Part shown: piece after piece, positions 1,807-18,177 of the stretch
Layout of the letters: the number at the start of each line of letters is the position of its first letter
Numbering within the stretch: position 1 is the stretch's first letter
Virus genome (UHGV): UHGV-1667981
Length of the DNA stretch: 18,367 nucleotides
Reading direction: 5' to 3' (one strand)
Origin: a virus
Notes under the pieces: generated by a model
Database searches by the model: none
Seen by the model: the letters and a program-made list of their open reading frames with translations, nothing else
What the model was told of the DNA's origin: nothing
Program-made: the position numbers and the translations under genes

Positions 1807-2928
1807 TTACTCAAATAACTTTTTCACTTCATCAACTGTCTGAAGATAACGTTCGCCCTCAATCTCAATACCTATTGCCTGACGTCCTAACTTCAGCGCA
1901 GCTTTAATAGTTGAGCCTGATCCCATAAAGAAATCGGCAACGATATCTCCGGGGCGTGAACTACTCTTTATAATATGTTCCATCATCGCTGCAGGTTTTT
2001 CACATGGGTGCTTGCCAGGATAATATTGCACAGGAGGAAACTCCCATACATCGGTATAAGGTACATCAGCAGTAACATGAAATGGACGGCGTAAATTTTC
2101 ATACTGAGCCTTCAAATCATCATACTGCTTCTTTACTTCCTCATAATGCAATTTCAGATCGCTATAACGCTTTTCATGTTCTGAATAATCAACATTAAAA
2201 GGATATGGACACGGGACACCGAGTGAATCTGCCTTCCTGCGAAATAATTCGCATAGTTTATTAAAATCAATTAATGATGGAAGCCGCCACTGCGAATAAG
2301 AAAACCAGTGTGAACACATCTGCTTTCCTGTCGCTGAATTAATGTCTGCGGCTGATATATCTAACTGACGGCGAGCCAGCGAAAAAGCATCAATTAGTGG
2401 AGAAAAAATATTTTTTCTTAAATCTGCACATTTTGAAGCATAACCTGACTGACCTTTAGCATAACCTGACGCGCCGTAATGCTCTGCAAATAATATTCTT
2501 TCAGTAGCAGGAAAATAAGCCCTTAAACTTTCTTTATGACAACCGCGCCACATACCACTGGGTTTAGCCCAAATGATATGGTTCAGAACATTGAAACGGT
2601 CGCGAGTTAATAATTCAATTTTTGACGCAAGGCGAGAGCCGGTAAACATATACAGGCTGCCATTAGGGGCCAATATCCGCCAAAATTCTGCCAAAAATTC
2701 GTCAATCCACCCCAAAAAGTCAGCATCGCTATCCCACTGGTTATCCCATGCGTTAGCCTTTACGCCGAAGTATGGTGGGTCTGTTGCAATCAAATTGACC
2801 GAGTTATCAGGGATGGTTTTGATAAATTGCAGAGAATCTGCGCAAACGAGTTGTGCGCCATGAATATTAGTGGTTTTGAACATAGCTATTATTTTTTTGC
2901 CTGGGTAAGCTAACCCGGCGATGCGCAT
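1807..2928 (-). CDS. DNA methyltransferase, N6-adenine/N4-cytosine family (beta-class motif order)
   Basis: ORF 1807..2928(-), 373 aa. DPPY catalytic motif (IATDPPYF) near the N-terminus and AdoMet-binding FxGxG motif (DFFMGSGST) near the C-terminus. Start codon uncertain (alternative internal Met at MFKTTNIH). No adjacent restriction endonuclease gene seen, so it appears orphan. Confidence 0.85.
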   Translation of the reverse strand: MRIAGLAYPGKKIIAMFKTTNIHGAQLVCADSLQFIKTIPDNSVNLIATDPPYFGVKANAWDNQWDSDADFLGWIDEFLAEFWRILAPNGSLYMFTGSRLASKIELLTRDRFNVLNHIIWAKPSGMWRGCHKESLRAYFPATERILFAEHYGASGYAKGQSGYASKCADLRKNIFSPLIDAFSLARRQLDISAADINSATGKQMCSHWFSYSQWRLPSLIDFNKLCELFRRKADSLGVPCPYPFNVDYSEHEKRYSDLKLHYEEVKKQYDDLKAQYENLRRPFHVTADVPYTDVWEFPPVQYYPGKHPCEKPAAMMEHIIKSSSRPGDIVADFFMGSGSTIKAALKLGRQAIGIEIEGERYLQTVDEVKKLFE

Positions 2929-3127: not shown

Positions 3128-3145
3128 GTGCGACCGTGGTCGCAC
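3128..3145. repeat. 18-bp palindrome GTGCGACC-GT-GGTCGCAC (copy 1 of 3); candidate SopB/ParB-type centromere site
   Basis: Perfect 8-bp inverted arms with 2-bp spacer; arms extend to 11 bp here (3125..3148). Same 18-mer recurs at 7507..7524 and, with 7-bp arms, at 9950..9965. Resembles the F-plasmid sopC core TGGGACC-AC-GGTCCCA as recalled. Confidence 0.5.
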
Positions 3146-7296: not shown

Positions 7297-7524
7297 CTAT
7301 ACCCAAATTTTCTGTTGATATGTTCTGGATGGTTTTGGCGTTCTTTCTGATTCAGGTAAATGAACATAAACACAATATCCATCACCTAAAAAATCAGAAC
7401 GAACAACCAGAACTTTCTTACCACGCCGCCGATAAGTATCTGAAAGACGCTCTGCTTCATCATGCGTCATCGGCCCCTGCTTAAATGGCGTTATTTTCAT
7501 TTTCTTGTGCGACCACGGTCGCAC
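7297..7524 (-). CDS. Hypothetical small protein; start codon ambiguous (7524, 7500 or 7470)
   Basis: ORF track 7297..7524(-). The longest version overlaps the 3' end of the 7481..7801 ORF and the palindrome at 7507..7524; a shorter start at 7470 (MTHDEAERL, preceded by AGGGG) avoids the overlap. Confidence 0.3.
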   Translation of the reverse strand: MRPWSHKKMKITPFKQGPMTHDEAERLSDTYRRRGKKVLVVRSDFLGDGYCVYVHLPESERTPKPSRTYQQKIWV

Positions 7525-9471: not shown

Positions 9472-9587
9472 CAGGAAGCAGCCACAACAAAGCGACGGAT
9501 TCCGTCAATCAAAGATGCGTTTATTGTGGCTGCTCCTGCGGATTTTTTCAACCCGAAAAAACATAATTCGCATGGAATGGCTAAAAA

Positions 9588-12500
9588 ATGACATTAAACG
9601 ATTTCTATGCGGATCGCTTTGGCAGCGATCCGTTCTCGCTAATTGAAGCAGCACGGGATGAACTAACCGAGCTGGCACAGATGGCTGGTATCAACTGGCC
9701 TGCCTGTTCCGACAACATCCAACTCAACCCTCGCGGGGGTGTTGAGCGTTACTCTTCATACAATAAAACATCTCCAGAAGCTCTCGAGAAGAGCCTCAAA
9801 GGACGCGTAGAAATTTACTCCCGGCTGGAACACAGCAAAGGGATTGATTATCCGTTCATTAACTTCGTCCATAAAGGCAGCGATGCTGGCTCATGGAGCG
9901 GTTTCTCCTTCCTGTTTTCTGAATATCGCCGTGAGCAACAGCGGAATAATGCGACCGTGGTCGCACAACCGGAAGAAGAACGGGCAAGAATAGAACGTCA
10001 GGCCGAAGCACGTCGTCGCCGTGAAGAACAAAAACGAATTAATGACCTGAAAAACAACCAAATGGACCATGAACGTTTGCTGGGATGGCTGGCATTTCAC
10101 AGCGCGTGGGAACATGCTCCTGCAGAAGACGGCTCGTGGCCATATGCGATTAAAAAAGGTATTCGTGACGTTTTTAATTCGTGTGATGTGCGTCGCGTGA
10201 CCAGTCACGACAGCGCAAAATGGAGCAGGGGGCCAACCACGTATATGGCTATCCCTCTGGCTCACCTGGACGGTCGTTACGATGGTCGTATTGTGGGTTG
10301 GCAGCGAATCGACAAACAAGGTGGAAAATACCAGACCAGCGCCGTAACCAGCGGCGATTTCGTCGGTGCCTGCTTTGTTATCGGTGAGCTAAAAGGGGCG
10401 CAAAACATCGCTGTTACAGAAGGTTTTGCTACTGGTGCATCCATCTGGCTTGCCACGAAAAAAGATAAACGCTTTGACGCTGTGGTTGTCGCTGTATCCG
10501 CTAACAACATGGTTCATGTTGTGGAACAACTGGTAAACATGTACCCGGCGGCAAAAATCACCTGCGCACTGGATAATGACAGGAAATCAGCTACAGAAGG
10601 AAAAGGGAATACCGGCCTGCGGACTGGCTATGAAATCTTATCGAAATTCAACGATGTCCGCTGCGTCTATCCAACTTTTGAAGACGATCCGCAAATGGAG
10701 TGCAGTGACTTCAACGACCTGCACAAACTACGTGGACTTCGTGAAACAGCACGTCAACTGTTTGCAACTGCAAACCGCCTGAAAACTGGCACTGATTTGC
10801 TATCTCTGACGCTCAACCGCCTGAAGACAATTAAGCGGGATAACCGTCGTACTTTTGCCAAAGAGCTGCTGAGAGCGGTGGATATTGGCATGCTAACCTG
10901 CCCGGTTCCTAACAGTCCGTCAGATTTATTTAACATGTTCTGCATCGTTCTGCGTGAAATGGGACTGGAAAATATCTATCGCGCTACGGTAAAAGACCAC
11001 ATTGCCCGTCGCCTGAATAAAAAGTGCCGTATTGCCCAGGCTCCGCGCTCTTTCAGCGAACGCATAACTGATCCCAATAAACGCCCTCAACATATCACCT
11101 ATAAGCGTTTTGAAACTTCGGTAATGACCGATGATGTCCTGAAGTACGTGCAATCACTACAGGGGATAGTCATCGTCCGTGCTGGTATGGGTTCCGGCAA
11201 ATCTACTGGATTGTTACGACCGTTAATGCATAGCTCAGAACGTGGTATCTCTGTTGCTCACCGTGTCTCCCTTATTGGTGGCCTGTGGGAAATGATGACA
11301 GAAGGAAAAGGTGTAAAAGCCGATATCCTGCACTATCAGGACCCTGGCTATCAGGAAATGGCTCCATACGCCAGTAAACTGACCATCTGCATAAACTCGA
11401 TTGTTAAAAACTGCTGGCAACCGTTGATGCGCCAGCACGACTATTTTGGCTTTGACGAGGCCACGCAAGGGCTACGTGCCGTTCTTTCCGGTCGGGCTAT
11501 GGAAAACCCGGTTGCTGTATTCAATACGCTAATTGACGCGCTGGCCAGAACGGAACAACACCCAATCATGGTGGATGCTGATGCGAACGATCTACTGGTT
11601 GACCTGGCTGAACTGGCTATGAAACGCCGTGAAGAACTAGGTTTACCGGCATGGCTGCAGATCCACGTAATTGAATTACCTGTTGATGTTTGCAACCGCG
11701 AAACAGGTGAGCCAATCCGGGTTTTTTATACAGAAAAAGATCGCATCATGACCGAGGTGGTGAAAGCTGTATCGGATGGCGAAAAAATCATGTTGGCCAC
11801 CGACAGCTCCACCTTTGCAGAAGATGTGACAGCCACCCTGAGAATGCATTTTCCTGGTAAGAAATTTCTGTGTGTAAACCAGAAAAACAAACCAGAGCCA
11901 GAAGTTGAAGCATTTACCAATCAACCGAAAAAGATGGTCAAAAAATACGACGGCCTGATTTATAGCCCGTCTATTTCATCCGGCGTGTCGATTGAGCAAA
12001 AACATTTTGACCGTCATTTCGGCATGTTCTGTGGTGAAGTTGTACCCAGCGACGCAGTGCAAATGCTACGCCGCGACCGTACAGCAAAAGAATTTATTAT
12101 CGGCTTTGATAAAGCTCGTGCAAAACGTGAAACTGACCCGCAAAAAATAGAACGAGCATTCGCCCAGGCATTGCTTGCTACCGCAGGTATGAACGGTGAA
12201 CTTACGGATGTCGTTTTCGATGGCGACCGTATATCAATGGGGGTGGCCAATACCGACTTTACCAGGATGAAAATTAAAGCAGCCGCAATTGAAGCGACTG
12301 CGCGTAACGACTACGCCAGCAACATGATCTGCATCATGCACAGCGACGGTTATAAGGTATCACCGCTGGCCACCGATTATGCTGCGAATGATATCGGTAA
12401 AGATCTGCGTAAAGAAGCGCGGGATATTGTGTGGGAACAGACACTGGATCTGCACCTCAATACAGAAACTCCACAAGAATCAGAGCGTGAAGAACTGCTA

Positions 12501-13583
12501 AAAAAACGCGCGCTGACGCTTGAAGAACAGGCAAAACTTGTCCGCTGGGATATTGAAAACGAACTGAAACTACCGGTTGAAGAAGGCACGCTGAAATTCT
12601 ATTTCGATGGTGCTCGAGACAAAGTTCGCCGCTATGAAACAATGCTTTTAGATGAGGTAACAGCTCGTCGTTACGACCGGGAAGAAGCAGCCATCAATTT
12701 TACCTACGCATACCGTCAGGCGGGACAGTGGCAATATTTTGTAGTGACCGCGATGACTCGCGAGCAGGCTGATGATGTCTTTAAAACTAAATTCCCTGGA
12801 ATAATCGATCACAAGGTAAAAGCTACTCCTACTGTTGAAGTCGGGGCGCGCGGTTTCTATGCGCTTAAATCAGCAACTCTCCGGCAGTACTTTATCGACT
12901 GCGGTATCAACCCTGAAACTATGACCGGCGAGGCGACTCAGGAGCGTCTCAAATTCGCTCGAGATAACCTCATGACAGCCGAACGCCGTGACCTGTTGAA
13001 TAACGTTCTGCACATTGGTGGTTTTATGACGCCAAAAGGGAAGCCTAAAGTGCCGGAAGCGTTGTTTAAAAACATTTGCGACTCTCTTGGCCTTAAAACA
13101 GGTAAACGTCGCGGCAGAGACGGCGATAAGCGTCCAACCTTGCGTTTTGTTGAGCCCGAATCAGCGGCATTTATGCTGGATATTCTTGTTCAGCGTCAGA
13201 AAGATGGCCTAACCCTAAAAACGCGTAAAGCCGAGAAGACAGCCATCGAAATGGATCGCGATTTGGATCTCAATATATATATGGATGATAAAACGCGATC
13301 CACAAACGAGCAGGTTCAAAACGCCCCTCATTCAGTAATTTCTGAGGCTTTGGCCGTATTGCCGGTGGCTGTTCCTGAGTCCTGGGCGATGAGTGCGCTT
13401 TCCGGTGAGGAGCTGGCCACTATGTCATCATGGTCATCAACCAGCATAGCTATGACGTTTGCATCTCTGTACCTCACAGAGTTCATGGATCACTTGTCCA
13501 GCAATGAACTGCGGCGGTTACGAGAATACATTACCGGGAATAGCTCATGCAGCTACGAAGAGCAGGGCGCTTTCTATGGGTAA
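9588..13583 (+). CDS. repA: Multifunctional replication protein, primase-helicase (N15 RepA-type, 1331 aa)
   Basis: ORF 9588..13583(+). TOPRIM-like primase signature (AVTEGFATGASIW ... CALDNDRKS) in the N-terminal third; Walker A RAGMGSGKSTG and Walker B-like FGFDEATQG in the middle. Size and architecture match N15 RepA (about 1300 aa) as recalled. Confidence 0.9.
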   Translation: MTLNDFYADRFGSDPFSLIEAARDELTELAQMAGINWPACSDNIQLNPRGGVERYSSYNKTSPEALEKSLKGRVEIYSRLEHSKGIDYPFINFVHKGSDAGSWSGFSFLFSEYRREQQRNNATVVAQPEEERARIERQAEARRRREEQKRINDLKNNQMDHERLLGWLAFHSAWEHAPAEDGSWPYAIKKGIRDVFNSCDVRRVTSHDSAKWSRGPTTYMAIPLAHLDGRYDGRIVGWQRIDKQGGKYQTSAVTSGDFVGACFVIGELKGAQNIAVTEGFATGASIWLATKKDKRFDAVVVAVSANNMVHVVEQLVNMYPAAKITCALDNDRKSATEGKGNTGLRTGYEILSKFNDVRCVYPTFEDDPQMECSDFNDLHKLRGLRETARQLFATANRLKTGTDLLSLTLNRLKTIKRDNRRTFAKELLRAVDIGMLTCPVPNSPSDLFNMFCIVLREMGLENIYRATVKDHIARRLNKKCRIAQAPRSFSERITDPNKRPQHITYKRFETSVMTDDVLKYVQSLQGIVIVRAGMGSGKSTGLLRPLMHSSERGISVAHRVSLIGGLWEMMTEGKGVKADILHYQDPGYQEMAPYASKLTICINSIVKNCWQPLMRQHDYFGFDEATQGLRAVLSGRAMENPVAVFNTLIDALARTEQHPIMVDADANDLLVDLAELAMKRREELGLPAWLQIHVIELPVDVCNRETGEPIRVFYTEKDRIMTEVVKAVSDGEKIMLATDSSTFAEDVTATLRMHFPGKKFLCVNQKNKPEPEVEAFTNQPKKMVKKYDGLIYSPSISSGVSIEQKHFDRHFGMFCGEVVPSDAVQMLRRDRTAKEFIIGFDKARAKRETDPQKIERAFAQALLATAGMNGELTDVVFDGDRISMGVANTDFTRMKIKAAAIEATARNDYASNMICIMHSDGYKVSPLATDYAANDIGKDLRKEARDIVWEQTLDLHLNTETPQESEREELLKKRALTLEEQAKLVRWDIENELKLPVEEGTLKFYFDGARDKVRRYETMLLDEVTARRYDREEAAINFTYAYRQAGQWQYFVVTAMTREQADDVFKTKFPGIIDHKVKATPTVEVGARGFYALKSATLRQYFIDCGINPETMTGEATQERLKFARDNLMTAERRDLLNNVLHIGGFMTPKGKPKVPEALFKNICDSLGLKTGKRRGRDGDKRPTLRFVEPESAAFMLDILVQRQKDGLTLKTRKAEKTAIEMDRDLDLNIYMDDKTRSTNEQVQNAPHSVISEALAVLPVAVPESWAMSALSGEELATMSSWSSTSIAMTFASLYLTEFMDHLSSNELRRLREYITGNSSCSYEEQGAFYG
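9950..9965. repeat. Palindrome TGCGACC-GT-GGTCGCA (copy 3 of 3), inside repA coding sequence
   Basis: Shares the 16-bp core gcgaccgtggtcgcac (9951..9966) with the 18-mer at 3128..3145; 7-bp inverted arms here, because the flanking base is A rather than G. Encodes ATVVAQ in the repA frame, the same peptide the copy at 7507..7524 encodes in the 7481..7801 ORF. Confidence 0.5.
13252..13302. other. Candidate internal replication origin element within the 3' part of repA: 9-bp inverted repeat flanking an (AT)n tract with three GATC sites
   Basis: tggatcgcg (13252..13260) and cgcgatcca (13294..13302) flank atttggatctcaatatatatatggatgataaaa. GATC at 13254, 13266 and 13297. Confidence 0.35.
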
Positions 13584-13771
13584 TCAGTGGATATTATCTT
13601 TGTGTCTCTTGCTTTATGTGTTCCAGCAATGGTTTTGGTTCATAGATCGAAAGTCTCACAAGGAAAACATGAAGGCCAGGAAGGCGATGTTTCGTGGTGA
13701 ACAATTTGCGCAGACTTATCGTATGTGGAAACGTTTCTATCGTGAATTTTCGGTGAACGGGGAGTAAAAAT

Positions 13772-14098
13772 ATGTCTACTACTGCATTTTTGGACAAACT
13801 TGATTACCGTCAGCTGCAGTTCTGCCGGGATGAATGCGAACGACGCATTAGGGCTATCCAGGAGGAAGAAAAAAAGGTCGCCTGGGCTGTAACAGATCGT
13901 GGCCTTATCTTTGGCTGGTTCCGTACGGAGGATTATCTGAAAGCAGTGGAATTATTGGCGCGTGAAGCTGCTGAGCGTTGGGAACGAGCCGACAAGAAAA
14001 ACCCGGAGACGAAGTATGAACTGAATCTCTACATCGAGGGCAACCATCTACCATTGTCAGAGTATAACGCTTTGTTTGCTGATGGTGAGTGGGGTTAA
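13772..14098 (+). CDS. Hypothetical protein (108 aa)
   Basis: ORF track 13772..14098(+); GGAG SD about 7 nt upstream. No recognisable domain. Confidence 0.55.
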   Translation: MSTTAFLDKLDYRQLQFCRDECERRIRAIQEEEKKVAWAVTDRGLIFGWFRTEDYLKAVELLAREAAERWERADKKNPETKYELNLYIEGNHLPLSEYNALFADGEWG

Positions 14099-14302
14099 AA
14101 ATGGATGTTCAATTATACAAATACGAATCCCCTTTGGTTGACATCCTCCACGCCCTTCATGGCGTGGACTCCTGCCACGCTCTGGCAGCGCCTGAACCGT
14201 TTGTGGTTCGTTCCGCTTTACCGGTCTGAAGTAGCAAATGTATTGTTATGGTGTATAAATACTCTTTCTTTTCAATAGAAAGCCAAAAGAAGGAGTATTT
14301 AT

Positions 14303-14530
14303 ATGGTGAACTGCAACAAAAATGAAGAAACTCGCCTGGTTTGGACGGTAGTAATCGGAGATAAAAAGGGCGGTGAAGAGCCTCATTTTGATTATTCTGT
14401 GGCTTTGCAGGCTCTCATCCTTGAAGCGCAGATATACCAACAAGAGATGCAGAAGAACCCTCAACTGGAACCTCGACCAATTGGCCTATTCTGCGAGCGA
14501 GTATCAGCGGCTGAACTCCCTGATATCTGA
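14303..14530 (+). CDS. Hypothetical small protein (75 aa)
   Basis: ORF track 14303..14530(+); AGGAG SD 7 nt upstream. No recognisable domain. Confidence 0.5.
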   Translation: MVNCNKNEETRLVWTVVIGDKKGGEEPHFDYSVALQALILEAQIYQQEMQKNPQLEPRPIGLFCERVSAAELPDI

Positions 14531-15075: not shown

Positions 15076-15305
15076 ATCAGGTAAAAATGAACACTGTTGG
15101 CCTGCTGGAATCGTTGGATGAACGTCTGGCTCAGGTCTATGCGCTTGTGTCATCCGCCCATCGTACAGTCTCCAGCTGTGAGGCGTCGATTTATCTCTCA
15201 GAAGCCGGGAAGCTCCTTCAAATTGCGTGTGAGTTGACACACAAAGCACAGGGGTATTCAGCATCTCTCTCGTCGCAATTGCAGCACAATAAGGAGGCCA
15301 AATGA
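15072..15305 (+). CDS. Hypothetical protein (77 aa), second gene of the antirepressor operon
   Basis: ORF track 15072..15305(+); GAGGTGG SD upstream; ATGA overlaps at both ends indicate translational coupling. Confidence 0.55.
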   Translation: MNQVKMNTVGLLESLDERLAQVYALVSSAHRTVSSCEASIYLSEAGKLLQIACELTHKAQGYSASLSSQLQHNKEAK

Positions 15306-16084
15306 GCGCGTTAGCTGTATTTTCGTTTCAGGAAGAGCATCAGGTTCGTGTAGTGATGATTAACGGCGATCCGTGGTTTGTAGCGGCTGATGTTTGTAAT
15401 GCCATCGGGATTATCAATCATCGTGATGCTGTTGGTAAGTTGGATGAAGACGAAAAGGGGGTCGGTTCAACAGACACCCTTGGAGGTAAACAGGGAGTGA
15501 CAATTATTAACGAATCCGGCCTCTATACCCTAATCCTCCGCTGCCGTGACGCGGTGAAGCAAGGCACAACAGCTTGGCGGTTTCGCAAATGGGTAACGAA
15601 CGAAGTCTTGCCCTCTATTCGCAAAAATGGAGAGTACGTTTACGTCGAGCCAGAGCCAATGCGAGCAGCAGAGCCGTTGAACTGGAGGCAGAAAGAGTAT
15701 CTGCGAGGGCTGATTAACGATATTGCACAAAGTTTTCAATACCGAAATGCCTGGATTAGCGGTGTATGGTTGGCTTTGCGTCGGGCGTGTCGTAATCCAT
15801 CCCCGAACCCCATAACTGTTGATGATTTGCCAGCAATTACGGCAGAACTGCGCCGGATTTTGACGGCTGCTGAGTCGGCATTGGGGAACATGCGCACGTA
15901 TGAACGAGAGTTGTTGCGTGATGTTGTTCGTGGTGGTAGGCGGAGTATGTCGTGTGGTGATTTGCCCATCACCGATATCAACTCTGATCTGGAAAAGGCG
16001 TTACCCGCGCATTTTGAACTGGCAGTTCAAAAACTTGAGCAGTTGTCCGCGCAGCTAAAGCCAGCAGAAATCACCAATAAATAG
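15302..16084 (+). CDS. Prophage antirepressor with Bro-N/AntA-type N-terminal domain
   Basis: ORF 15302..16084(+), 260 aa; AAGGAGG SD. N-terminal motifs (GDPWFVAADVCNAIGI, LGGKQGVTIINESGLYTLILRC, WRFRKWVTNEVLPSIRKNGEY) match the Bro-N/AntA antirepressor domain as recalled. Confidence 0.8.
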   Translation: MSALAVFSFQEEHQVRVVMINGDPWFVAADVCNAIGIINHRDAVGKLDEDEKGVGSTDTLGGKQGVTIINESGLYTLILRCRDAVKQGTTAWRFRKWVTNEVLPSIRKNGEYVYVEPEPMRAAEPLNWRQKEYLRGLINDIAQSFQYRNAWISGVWLALRRACRNPSPNPITVDDLPAITAELRRILTAAESALGNMRTYERELLRDVVRGGRRSMSCGDLPITDINSDLEKALPAHFELAVQKLEQLSAQLKPAEITNK

Positions 16085-16257: not shown

Positions 16258-18177
16258 TTAGCCGAAATATGTCAGCCATGCTAACTGCATTGCTGACATG
16301 GGGCTGTTTGCACTGCCTGACCACGCATAATTCTGGCCATTATAATGAAACTCGACAACGTATGAGCCATCACCAATATTTCTCACTGGCTTAAATACCG
16401 GCTTAGATACAGGCGAAGAAGGTGCGGGTGGCTGCTGTTCTTCTACGCTTTCTTCCTCTTCCTCTTCCTCTTCCTCTTCCTCTTCCTCTTCCTCTATCTC
16501 AATTTCGTCGTCATCCAGATCGTCATCATCTGATAATTCATCCGCCTGTTCAGGTATTGCTTCCAGCTCTTCTTCGTCAGGCATAACGATTTCTGGAGTA
16601 TCTATTTTCAGCTGCCATTGTCCATTTTCGCCAACAAATTGCCCCAGAGCATCAGCAGCAAATTCCAGGTATCGACTAATCATTGTTGGGCTAAATTTGA
16701 ATGCTCTTAGCGTGCTGTTCGTGATTTTTATAGAGGGGTCCTGCTCTACCAGCTGCTTAACTGTGTTATGCAGACGAACCCCGGCATCTCCTCTGGCGAA
16801 TCCAGGCATTTCGTCATCAAGCTGCTGCAATGCTTCCAGCCTGGTATTTTCGTTTCCAGTATTTGGCCTCCATGTCTTTGAGAAGTTGGCCAGCTTGAAT
16901 TGCTTATAGTGTAATTGAGTGTTTTCATCGTCATGGCCTAAAATTTCCATAAAGAAAACATCCTCATCTACGTTTTTCCAACGAGGATCTACGCGGAAAA
17001 ACATTTCATACGCAATACGGGCATAAATAGCACGACTATCTTTATAAACACGGCGGTCATCTTTGAAAAATGATTTAACCCACGGGTTAAAAGCCTTTGC
17101 TAATATGGCATTAATACGTCCGTTTTCAGAGCGTGTGTCGTTATCTCCATAACCTTTAACGACATCATCAAAATCAGATGCTGCTGGGCATGATCGAAGT
17201 ACATTTATTAAATAAACAAATGTTTTTGCTTCGCATAATGTATATATTTTTCTGGTTATATCATCAGAAGTTCTTTTTTTAGCTTGGCCTAAAAAATCAA
17301 CGGTATACTTACCAGAAACAGTAAATGTACCTTGATACATAATCTCAATCATTCGTCTTCCTGACAATGCAGCAAGTGCAAATGCCAAAGGAGCCATACC
17401 TGAACGAGTGTTTAGATTATTTAATGTAGCAGGGCTATTTATAATATCGTAAATAGCTTGCATATATTTAGGGTAATCAATGACCACCACGTTACGTTTC
17501 TTATTGTGCAGAACGTCTGCCCATCGTTGCTGGATAGATGCGCGTTCGGCAGGGCTTAGTTGAAGATGATAGAGAATCTCATGGTTAACTTTTAGCTGAT
17601 TCAACTCCTCAAGCAAGGCAGATCCTTGCTGTAGTAATTTATATAAATAATCGCGCTTATCTTTCCAGTTATCGCTAGTTAAATCAGAAATGGCGAATTG
17701 CCACTCTTTATATTTATTTGATAATTTTAATAACTTATTATGACTTTTGTTATCACCAATTCTGATATTAGATAAATCTTCTGATAAAGGGAGAATTAAT
17801 TTTAATTTTGCCTGTAAAGCTGACATTCTCTGGCGAATATCGGCAGCAGGTAGAGAAAGCCATGATAATAGCTCCTCATTATATAAAGGATACTTTTCAG
17901 ATAGGCGATGTATATTTTTTTCAAAGCTATGATGAAGTTTATCATCAAACCGTTTTCTGGCCCTGCTCATATAGGTATTGAATGTGTTGGCTGTAATTCT
18001 TTTTTCTAATCCTTTCCCCCTAAACTTTCGCTTGTCATTAAATAATGCATTTTTAAATTTTAATGCAACAGCCTTTATTTTTTTTGTTTTTTCTCCTTGA
18101 GGACGGTCAGAGTTATCTATTGACTCAACATCGCTAACAAGTGAGTTTATTAATTCACCGATTTTTACTTTTCTCAT
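16258..18177 (-). CDS. telN: Protelomerase (telomere resolvase, TelN/TelK family)
   Basis: ORF 16258..18177(-), 639 aa; strong SD GGAGAGGAAAG upstream. Recognised from memory as closely resembling N15 TelN / phiKO2 TelK along its length (e.g. MRKVKIGELIN..., RSGMAPLAFALAALSGRRMIEI, ILGHDDENTQLHYKQF). Adjacent to a telomere-palindrome half-site at the window end. No alignment was run. Confidence 0.9.
   Translation of the reverse strand: MRKVKIGELINSLVSDVESIDNSDRPQGEKTKKIKAVALKFKNALFNDKRKFRGKGLEKRITANTFNTYMSRARKRFDDKLHHSFEKNIHRLSEKYPLYNEELLSWLSLPAADIRQRMSALQAKLKLILPLSEDLSNIRIGDNKSHNKLLKLSNKYKEWQFAISDLTSDNWKDKRDYLYKLLQQGSALLEELNQLKVNHEILYHLQLSPAERASIQQRWADVLHNKKRNVVVIDYPKYMQAIYDIINSPATLNNLNTRSGMAPLAFALAALSGRRMIEIMYQGTFTVSGKYTVDFLGQAKKRTSDDITRKIYTLCEAKTFVYLINVLRSCPAASDFDDVVKGYGDNDTRSENGRINAILAKAFNPWVKSFFKDDRRVYKDSRAIYARIAYEMFFRVDPRWKNVDEDVFFMEILGHDDENTQLHYKQFKLANFSKTWRPNTGNENTRLEALQQLDDEMPGFARGDAGVRLHNTVKQLVEQDPSIKITNSTLRAFKFSPTMISRYLEFAADALGQFVGENGQWQLKIDTPEIVMPDEEELEAIPEQADELSDDDDLDDDEIEIEEEEEEEEEEEEEEESVEEQQPPAPSSPVSKPVFKPVRNIGDGSYVVEFHYNGQNYAWSGSANSPMSAMQLAWLTYFG
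16448..16495. repeat. Hexanucleotide microsatellite (TTCCTC)x7 encoding a poly-Glu run in the protelomerase C-terminal region
   Basis: Seven perfect tandem TTCCTC units at 16454..16495 with partial flanking units; on the coding strand this is GAG/GAA giving EEEEEEEEEEEEEEEE. Confidence 0.9.

Follow-up and report, generated by a model that had tools for sequence, protein, structure and literature searches.

The stretch of DNA analysed here, the 18,367-nucleotide viral sequence UHGV-1667981 (hereafter the window), carries within its replication gene repA a 51-bp element at 13252-13302 that, judging from sequence comparison, is likely to be the core of a RepA-dependent origin of bidirectional plasmid-prophage replication, placed in the part of repA that encodes a linker of the protein. 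The element is the most nucleotide-constrained segment of the gene and is found at identical codons in more than 60 repA lineages, down to ~50% protein identity. An earlier sequence-only reading had proposed a candidate origin at 13240-13310, based on a 9-bp inverted repeat around an AT tract and on three GATC sites within 51 bp inside repA; both the repeat and the three sites are indeed present. The features of the region are as follows.

9588-13583, plus strand: repA, an open reading frame (ORF) of 1331 aa encoding a multidomain replication initiator; contains the element
13221-13360: constrained zone in which synonymous sites are conserved above the gene average; the functional origin probably extends this far
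13247-13257, plus strand: box 1, CGAAATGGATC, homologous to the N15 repeat_region CGAAGTGGATC; includes the first invariant GATC (13254-13257)
13252-13302: the element, 51 bp, with two inverted arms, an A+T spacer and three GATC sites, 283 nt before the repA stop
13252-13264: left arm of the dyad, TGGATCGCGATTT, a 13-nt repeat with one mismatch; the arms covary across lineages
13252-13260 and 13294-13302: left 9-nt arm TGGATCGCG and right 9-nt arm CGCGATCCA
13259-13269, plus strand: box 2, CGATTTGGATC, which repeats box 1 in the same orientation at a period of 12 bp; GATC at 13266-13269
13270-13293: A+T spacer, 20 of 24 bases A or T (83%), with a near-invariant TATA at 13274-13277; candidate DNA-unwinding element
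13290-13302: right arm of the dyad, AAAACGCGATCCA, carrying the second invariant GATC (13297-13300)
13297-13308, minus strand: box 3, GATCCACAAACG, an inverted box copy (reverse complement CGTTTGTGGATC), homologous to the third, inverted N15 repeat_region

The two 13-nt arms, with their single mismatch, are separated by 25 nt; between them lies CAATATATATATGG (13271-13284), with an uninterrupted A/T run at 13272-13282. The GATC sites start at 13254, 13266 and 13297, with spacings of 12 and 31 bp. The element is better described as three boxes, two direct and one inverted, and box 2 is an exact match to a repeat_region of N15. An iteron-type array, in the sense of at least three tandem direct repeats of ~17-22 bp, is absent, the repeats being two 11-bp direct boxes and an inverted one, and no longer direct-repeat family was found within 12800-13800. 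We also considered the TGGATC at 13486 as a fourth box and rejected it, since just 17 of 52 sequences share its GATC (13488).

The 3' regions of repA were gathered from a phage collection, one genome per species, and from IMG/VR, and were aligned by codon. Across 50 distinct sequences and 1056 columns covering the last kilobase of repA, the only invariant runs of at least 4 nt are GATC at 13254-13257, TATA at 13274-13277 and GATC at 13297-13300, all of them in the element, and six of the eight invariant third-codon positions fall within 13256-13298. The two outer GATCs (13254 and 13297) are present in 52 of 52 distinct sequences, always 43 bp apart and with no indels between them, and both are retained in divergent lineages, to RepA identities as low as ~50%. 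The middle GATC (13266) occurs in 50 of the 52, being lost in YDC107-type sequences, while a fourth GATC (13284), missing here and in N15, occurs in 32. The TATA core has one exception, TGTA in lineage L103.

The coding context of the outer sites indicates at which level these bases are selected. At the first GATC, Asp is without exception encoded by GAT and the codon after it invariably starts with C, whichever of the pairs D-R, D-H, D-L and D-P is encoded; at the second invariant GATC the bases are supplied by CGA, GGA or AGA followed by a Ser codon that is TCN and never AGY. The bases are thus fixed while the encoded residues change, and selection therefore acts on the DNA and not on the protein. 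In line with this, the best 20-codon window for synonymous-codon identity to N15, out of all 1331 codons, is 13242-13301 (0.92, against a gene mean of 0.44), and the same window comes out on top in the comparison with phiKO2 (0.82 vs 0.45), while its amino acid identity is 0.55-0.60 compared to 0.75 gene-wide. Among 20 representative lineages, compared over 811 codons, the top 10-codon window is 13251-13280 (pairwise synonymous identity 0.87 vs 0.45), the next well-sampled one reaching 0.66. A shoulder of synonymous identity of 0.5-0.6 spans ~13221-13360 in these lineages, and the weakest blastn matches in phages and plasmids retain only ~13224-13397. The 71 bp initially proposed thus contain the element, but are too narrow for the constrained zone around it.

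It is worth comparing this with what can be learned from the single sequence, where the inverted repeat and the GATC cluster are not far above chance. About 4.2 perfect 9-bp inverted repeats with a 10-60 nt loop are expected per dinucleotide-shuffled window, although just one lies in repA, and if 41 GATCs are placed at random, three come to lie inside 47 bp with a probability of ~0.14. GATC is rare in the window (41 observed vs 68 +/- 8 expected, with all 200 shuffles at 41 or more), so that a conserved cluster at the putative origin, which is also the tightest GATC cluster of the window, stands out. For TGGATC, three of the eight sites of the window lie inside the 51 bp (P ~0.001). The combination of an inverted repeat, an A/T run of at least 10 and three GATCs was seen in none of 1000 shuffles, by a criterion that was picked after the element had been seen. 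We thus regard the element as more than a chance arrangement because it is conserved across lineages, not because of single-sequence statistics.

The dyad symmetry is itself retained. The best inverted repeat of each lineage sits in the same register and differs in sequence, and arms that differ between lineages are nonetheless complementary to their partners, as exemplified by GATCGCGATTT, GATCTAACTTG, GATCTAGATTTT and GATCCAGCTTTTA. Three pairs of arms are given here.

PY54: left GATCTAACTTG, right CAAGTTGGATC
L117: left GGTGATCTAGATTTT, right AAAATCTGGATCACC
L120: left CTGATCCAGCTTTTA, right TAAAAGCTGGATCAG

Covariation was measured on 30 distinct 58-mers, pairing 13252-13266 with 13302-13288, with column shuffles and slid registers as controls. 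Paired cells make up 78.7%, compared to 66.0 +/- 1.4 in column shuffles (0 of 500 reaching the observed value), and sliding the register gives 25-44%. The covariation score of 0.291 compares with 0.125 shuffled and at most 0.126 slid. Of the variable pairs, 9 of 11 are changed on both sides. Strict Watson-Crick pairs outside the GATCs amount to 60.6%; 2000 shuffles give 43.9 +/- 1.9% and never exceed 51.2%, and slid registers give 16-40%. In addition, duplex stability in the 4-kb repA gene is lowest at the A+T spacer that separates the arms, at the 15-, 20- and 30-bp scales alike. The origin-like character that the sequence-only reading had ascribed to this 3' part of repA is thereby supported, by the synonymous constraint and duplex instability as well as by the homology to N15 repeats described below.

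At the same codons, N15 has CCATCGAAGTGGATCGCGATTTGGATCTAAATATAGATATACATGGTAACCCTCGATCCAAAACAG (also quoted as ..GAAGTGGATCGCGATTTGGATCTAAATATAGATATACATGGTAACCCTCGATCCAAAACAG), and an older record of N15 repA (U63085) annotates three 11-bp repeat_regions, two direct and one inverted, exactly at the bases homologous to the element. The suggestion that the element is the equivalent of one in N15 is thus borne out in sequence as well as position. Homologous positions in four genomes, lying 232-283 nt before the repA stop, are listed here.

N15: AF064539 30145-30191 (the site of the U63085 repeats), position homologous
phiKO2: NC_005857 34571-34617, position homologous
PY54: AJ564013 27863-27909, 232 nt before the stop
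PhiR46_1: PV340565 4597-4643, position homologous

The likeness to N15 covers an orthologous initiator (75% aa identity), the same codons at ~260-280 nt ahead of the stop, two direct and one inverted GATC box, an ATATA core, and a replicon context of cB/cro, protelomerase and dispersed centromere sites. The differences are in the arms, which are 7-9 nt in N15 compared to the longer and better-matched 13 nt with one mismatch here, and in the spacer (TATATATATGGATGAT here vs TAGATATACATGGTAACC in N15). The mapped N15 origin is reportedly in the 3' part of repA; together with the homology, this suggests that it may cover exactly these bases. Published accounts state that N15 replication starts within repA (PMC2847241), and that the origin lies inside repA, whose product unites primase, helicase and origin-binding functions (PMC4165912, citing Mardanov & Ravin 2006).

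The more distant PY54 element is found at the same position in repA, with outer GATCs 43 bp apart, a TATAGATAT core and the complementary arms listed above. It differs in having four GATCs spaced 13/18/12 bp, in arms that are unrelated apart from the GATC, and in a RepA that is only ~49% identical overall and 37% over the last 331 residues. The PY54 origin, attributed to Ziegelin et al. 2005, is said to be 212 bp long and to lie in the 3' portion of repA. For PY54, repA by itself is enough for replication of a circular plasmid (PMC10612081).

RepA of the window is 75% identical to N15 gp37 and phiKO2 gp35, and 49% to PY54 RepA. Its profile matches are to Pfam Herpes_ori_bp (a superfamily 2, SF2, helicase), Toprim_3 (weak), NCBIfam CyRepA1 and PHROG 4913 'replication', and the RepA proteins of N15 and PY54 have been described as SF2 helicases fused to a DnaG-type primase (PMC4889955). 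The structure of the last 331 residues of RepA was predicted from a six-sequence alignment. The model has a coil at residues 206-249 of this segment, with a predicted local distance difference test (pLDDT) score of 23-27, followed by a helical domain at 250-316 that is predicted better; residues 218-242, which the element encodes, fall inside the predicted coil. In RepA alignments, indels adjoin the codons of the element, and the protein is poorly conserved there. Because of the predicted coil, the low amino acid conservation and the adjoining indels, we suggest that the origin may have been placed where the protein tolerates it, in a poorly conserved and probably unstructured linker.

A large protein search with the C-terminal 331 aa returned six fragments only, which are 3' pieces of frameshifted repA and were rejected as independent origin-carrying elements. 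One such split is seen in L134 2649-6612 (K. pneumoniae GCA_900503275.1), also in L136 and L137, where repA is divided into parts of 1115 aa and 203 aa; the 203-aa part carries the origin region, and its product represents 75 member sequences. This may be either a recurrent sequencing artefact or a lineage that tolerates the loss of the fused C-terminus.

Based on these data, we propose the following sequence of events. RepA, with its primase, SF2 helicase and origin-binding functions, would bind the GATC boxes on the arms at 13252-13264 and 13290-13302, plus the direct box at 13259-13269; the 24-bp A+T spacer between the arms would then melt, and RepA would load its own helicase there and prime both strands. 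Two forks would proceed in both directions, so that the left telomere, ~4.6 kb away, would be duplicated first and resolved by protelomerase. As for the GATCs, they may belong to the RepA site as its constant portion or, as at oriC and P1 oriR, serve as targets for Dam and SeqA. More tentatively, we speculate that the invariant GATCs are kept as Dam sites and not as part of what RepA recognises. Host Dam methylation and sequestration by SeqA would then set the timing or copy number of these origins in enterobacterial telomere phage-plasmids, and the replicon specificity of RepA would come from the lineage-specific, covarying inner parts of the arms; we regard this as possible but less likely than not. 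We know of no report of Dam/SeqA control in N15-type replicons. Their enterobacterial hosts are Dam-positive, and the methylase encoded by the phage itself falls outside the Dam family. Of the clustered Dam sites in the earlier proposal, the cluster itself is conserved, while a role for Dam would be a matter of interpretation.

The methylase gene in question (1807-2928, minus strand; 373 aa) is of the N6_N4 type (Pfam PF01555), with weak YhdJ-/CcrM-like matches below the NCBIfam cut-offs. In the PhiR46_1 record the same protein is annotated as a DNA adenine methylase, but it is not a member of the Dam family.

A number of observations weigh against assigning the origin to this element. Shared ancestry inflates covariation scores, and the controls remove this effect incompletely; the slid registers, however, retain ancestry and yet score far lower than the true register. 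The middle GATC is missing in YDC107 and L030, and is missing at that position in L108, L117 and L120, so that not every box can be essential. The structure model is of low overall confidence (mean pLDDT 52). GC skew, which the sequence-only reading had put forward as a check, follows gene orientation when plotted along all 46 kb of PhiR46_1 and is lowest where cI and cro diverge; it tracks the direction of transcription, does not mark the element, and proved uninformative here. Finally, the single strand folds into a strong hairpin here (z = -3.75), but only into a weak one in N15 (z = -0.85). A stable cruciform is therefore not a shared feature, and we rejected it as what is conserved; symmetric protein binding fits the covarying arms better.

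The element might also be a cis-acting site that controls replication, while replication starts elsewhere in or near repA; it could for instance be a RepA-binding enhancer similar to crr of phage P4, a site for copy control by handcuffing, or a target for sequestration by SeqA/Dam. As only one patch is strongly constrained, 'the origin' and 'a required cis site' are not separable on that basis, and two invariant GATCs within variable flanks would fit recognition by a host factor. There is also a precedent, as replication of phage P4 needs two separate cis sites, ori and crr. However, a second patch of comparable nucleotide constraint is found neither in the 3' 2.4 kb of repA nor gene-wide in the comparison with N15; a stability minimum between the arms of a dyad is the classic layout of an initiation site, and a cluster of P4-type iterons is absent. 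We thus consider a pure control site unlikely.

Alternatively, the conserved bases could serve gene expression: as a promoter within repA, as a regulatory or antisense RNA, or through an mRNA hairpin acting on translation of the RepA C-terminus or of the genes downstream. A transcript hairpin is possible given the strong single-strand fold, and a sub-threshold match to a microRNA precursor reflects the same hairpin. Against this, no promoter-like site was found on either strand in 12900-13900, no Rfam family matched at threshold (the sole match scored 20 bits vs a gathering score of 95), N15 does not share the hairpin, and the invariant GATC and TATA are palindromic double-strand motifs rather than stem positions; a role in expression therefore seems very improbable. 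The idea that there is no DNA-level function, with the repeat, A+T run and GATCs as by-products of protein sequence, codon usage and shared ancestry, could draw on the weak single-sequence statistics and on the close relatedness of many of the gathered sequences, but it is already disfavoured and hardly credible, as synonymous sites reach their highest conservation in the gene just where the protein is less conserved than elsewhere, the second invariant GATC has a fixed rare Arg codon (CGA) and a TCN-only Ser, the first base C is kept after the first GATC while the residue varies (R/H/L/P), and the arms covary between lineages.

Returning to the element as a probable origin, it can be compared with other well-known initiation sites. 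In the herpes simplex oriS/UL9 system, a mechanistic analogy without homology of the sites, two inverted initiator boxes also flank a short A+T spacer and the initiator is likewise an SF2 helicase; the match of the RepA helicase region to Pfam Herpes_ori_bp is a parallel to UL9. The box sequences are nonetheless unrelated, RepA adds a primase, the origin would be inside the initiator's own gene, and binding of the arms by RepA is putative. With E. coli oriC and P1 oriR the element shares conserved GATCs clustered at or beside an A+T-rich region; it differs in having only three to four GATCs, and in lacking a DnaA box. No match to the DnaA box TTATCCACA with at most one mismatch is present in the whole window; matches with two mismatches are found at 13280 (minus strand) and 13296 (plus strand). 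We rejected CGATCCACA as a DnaA box, as it has two mismatches and its flanks are not conserved in PY54-like lineages. GATC spacing also varies within the family, being 12/18/13 bp in the Klebsiella and PY54 types, compared to 12 and 31 bp here. Phage P4 resembles the present case in that one multidomain protein provides primase, helicase and origin binding, and in an origin without DnaA boxes; unlike in P4, there is no cluster of TGTTCACC-type iterons and no second cis site was detected. Octamers of this P4 type, allowing at most one mismatch, give 14 matches in the window vs 13.6 expected, none of them clustered at the element.

A more remote case is VP882, whose RepA has 31% identity and is alignable only to residue 1163. 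In its repA gene (L138 4962-5012), two inverted 12-nt arms with a 92% match, TGGGGACACTTC/GAAGTATCCCCA, enclose a 27-nt spacer rich in A+T, where the gene has its least stable 20-mer. This dyad lies 187-238 nt before the stop and has no GATC. By analogy, this dyad is a candidate for the VP882 origin, and its layout supports a general origin design of a dyad with an A+T spacer; as GATC is missing, methylation would not be a family-wide requirement. In phiHAP-1 we found no clear analogue of the element.

The replicon itself is readily placed. The region 12900-13700 has 99.1% nucleotide identity (blastn) to Escherichia phage PhiR46_1, 77% to several Klebsiella telomere phages and ~66% to N15 and phiKO2. 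PhiR46_1 is a linear genome of 46.3 kb with annotated telL/telR, a primase/replication gene, cI and ParA/ParB; its record is without any origin annotation. Protelomerase domains are found in the ORF at 16258-18177 (minus strand) of the window. Because of the 99% identity to a phage with telL/telR, protelomerase and ParAB, the window is an N15-like telomere phage-plasmid, i.e. a linear plasmid prophage; the protelomerase in the window, telL/telR and ParAB in PhiR46_1, and four centromere-like palindromes are what one finds in such a prophage. The family is present in 17 of 5426 complete E. coli genomes and in 213 PLSDB plasmids, most of these from Klebsiella.

The centromere-like palindrome, TGCGACCGTGGTCGCA, has four copies in the window, at 89-104, 3129-3144, 7508-7523 and, inside repA, 9949-9966, with a chance expectation of 0.09. 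The repA copy is identical over 18 bp to a phiKO2 site annotated 'putative plasmid partitioning site', and its surroundings (~9903-9987) are likewise close to N15 at the nucleotide level. N15 likewise has one centromere site inside repA (PMC2847241); repA thus holds a second embedded cis site.

In N15, RepA acts in cis only (PMC3155836). For N15-like replicons, a replication assay with RepA supplied in trans may therefore fail even if the element is the origin. Ziegelin et al. reportedly found that RepA can act in trans without the 3' end of its gene.

Near repA there are two more perfect inverted repeats, each 9 bp or longer. One, at 9477-9534, immediately precedes repA, at the place taken in N15 by the CB operators and a terminator; the CB repressor, which binds upstream of repA, determines copy number (PMC4488713). 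The other, at 14254-14303, falls in a 50-bp stretch of low stability that follows the small genes downstream of repA. In a Klebsiella relative (L134 7583-8575), a Pesticin-domain protein is encoded between repA and protelomerase, an interval in which a TelA-ImmA toxin-immunity pair has been placed (PMC12042878); in the window this interval holds other small ORFs and a Bro-N protein at 15302-16084. Several assemblies contain two copies of the repA region, namely the IMG/VR contigs behind L014/L015, L039/L040, L035/L057 and L044/L045, where the paired copies are on the same contig in opposite orientation, and E. coli plasmid records of 61-75 kb. Such records probably reflect either hairpin-telomere molecules that were assembled as inverted duplications or head-to-head dimers formed by replication.

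In sum, a relative of N15 carries here the orthologue of an origin type that is already familiar, and no new kind of system is involved. The sequence-only reading had picked the right element for essentially the right reason, and its call was largely expected. What is gained is that the likely origin of a linear phage-plasmid family is fixed to within about 60 bp, and the two invariant GATCs, the TATA core, the covarying arms and the placement in a linker may add detail for specialists. This is of use for annotation, for N15-based linear cloning vectors, for the design of mutagenesis and for the question of Dam/SeqA control. More generally, the element shows how an origin can sit in the gene of its own initiator, within a stretch that encodes a linker.

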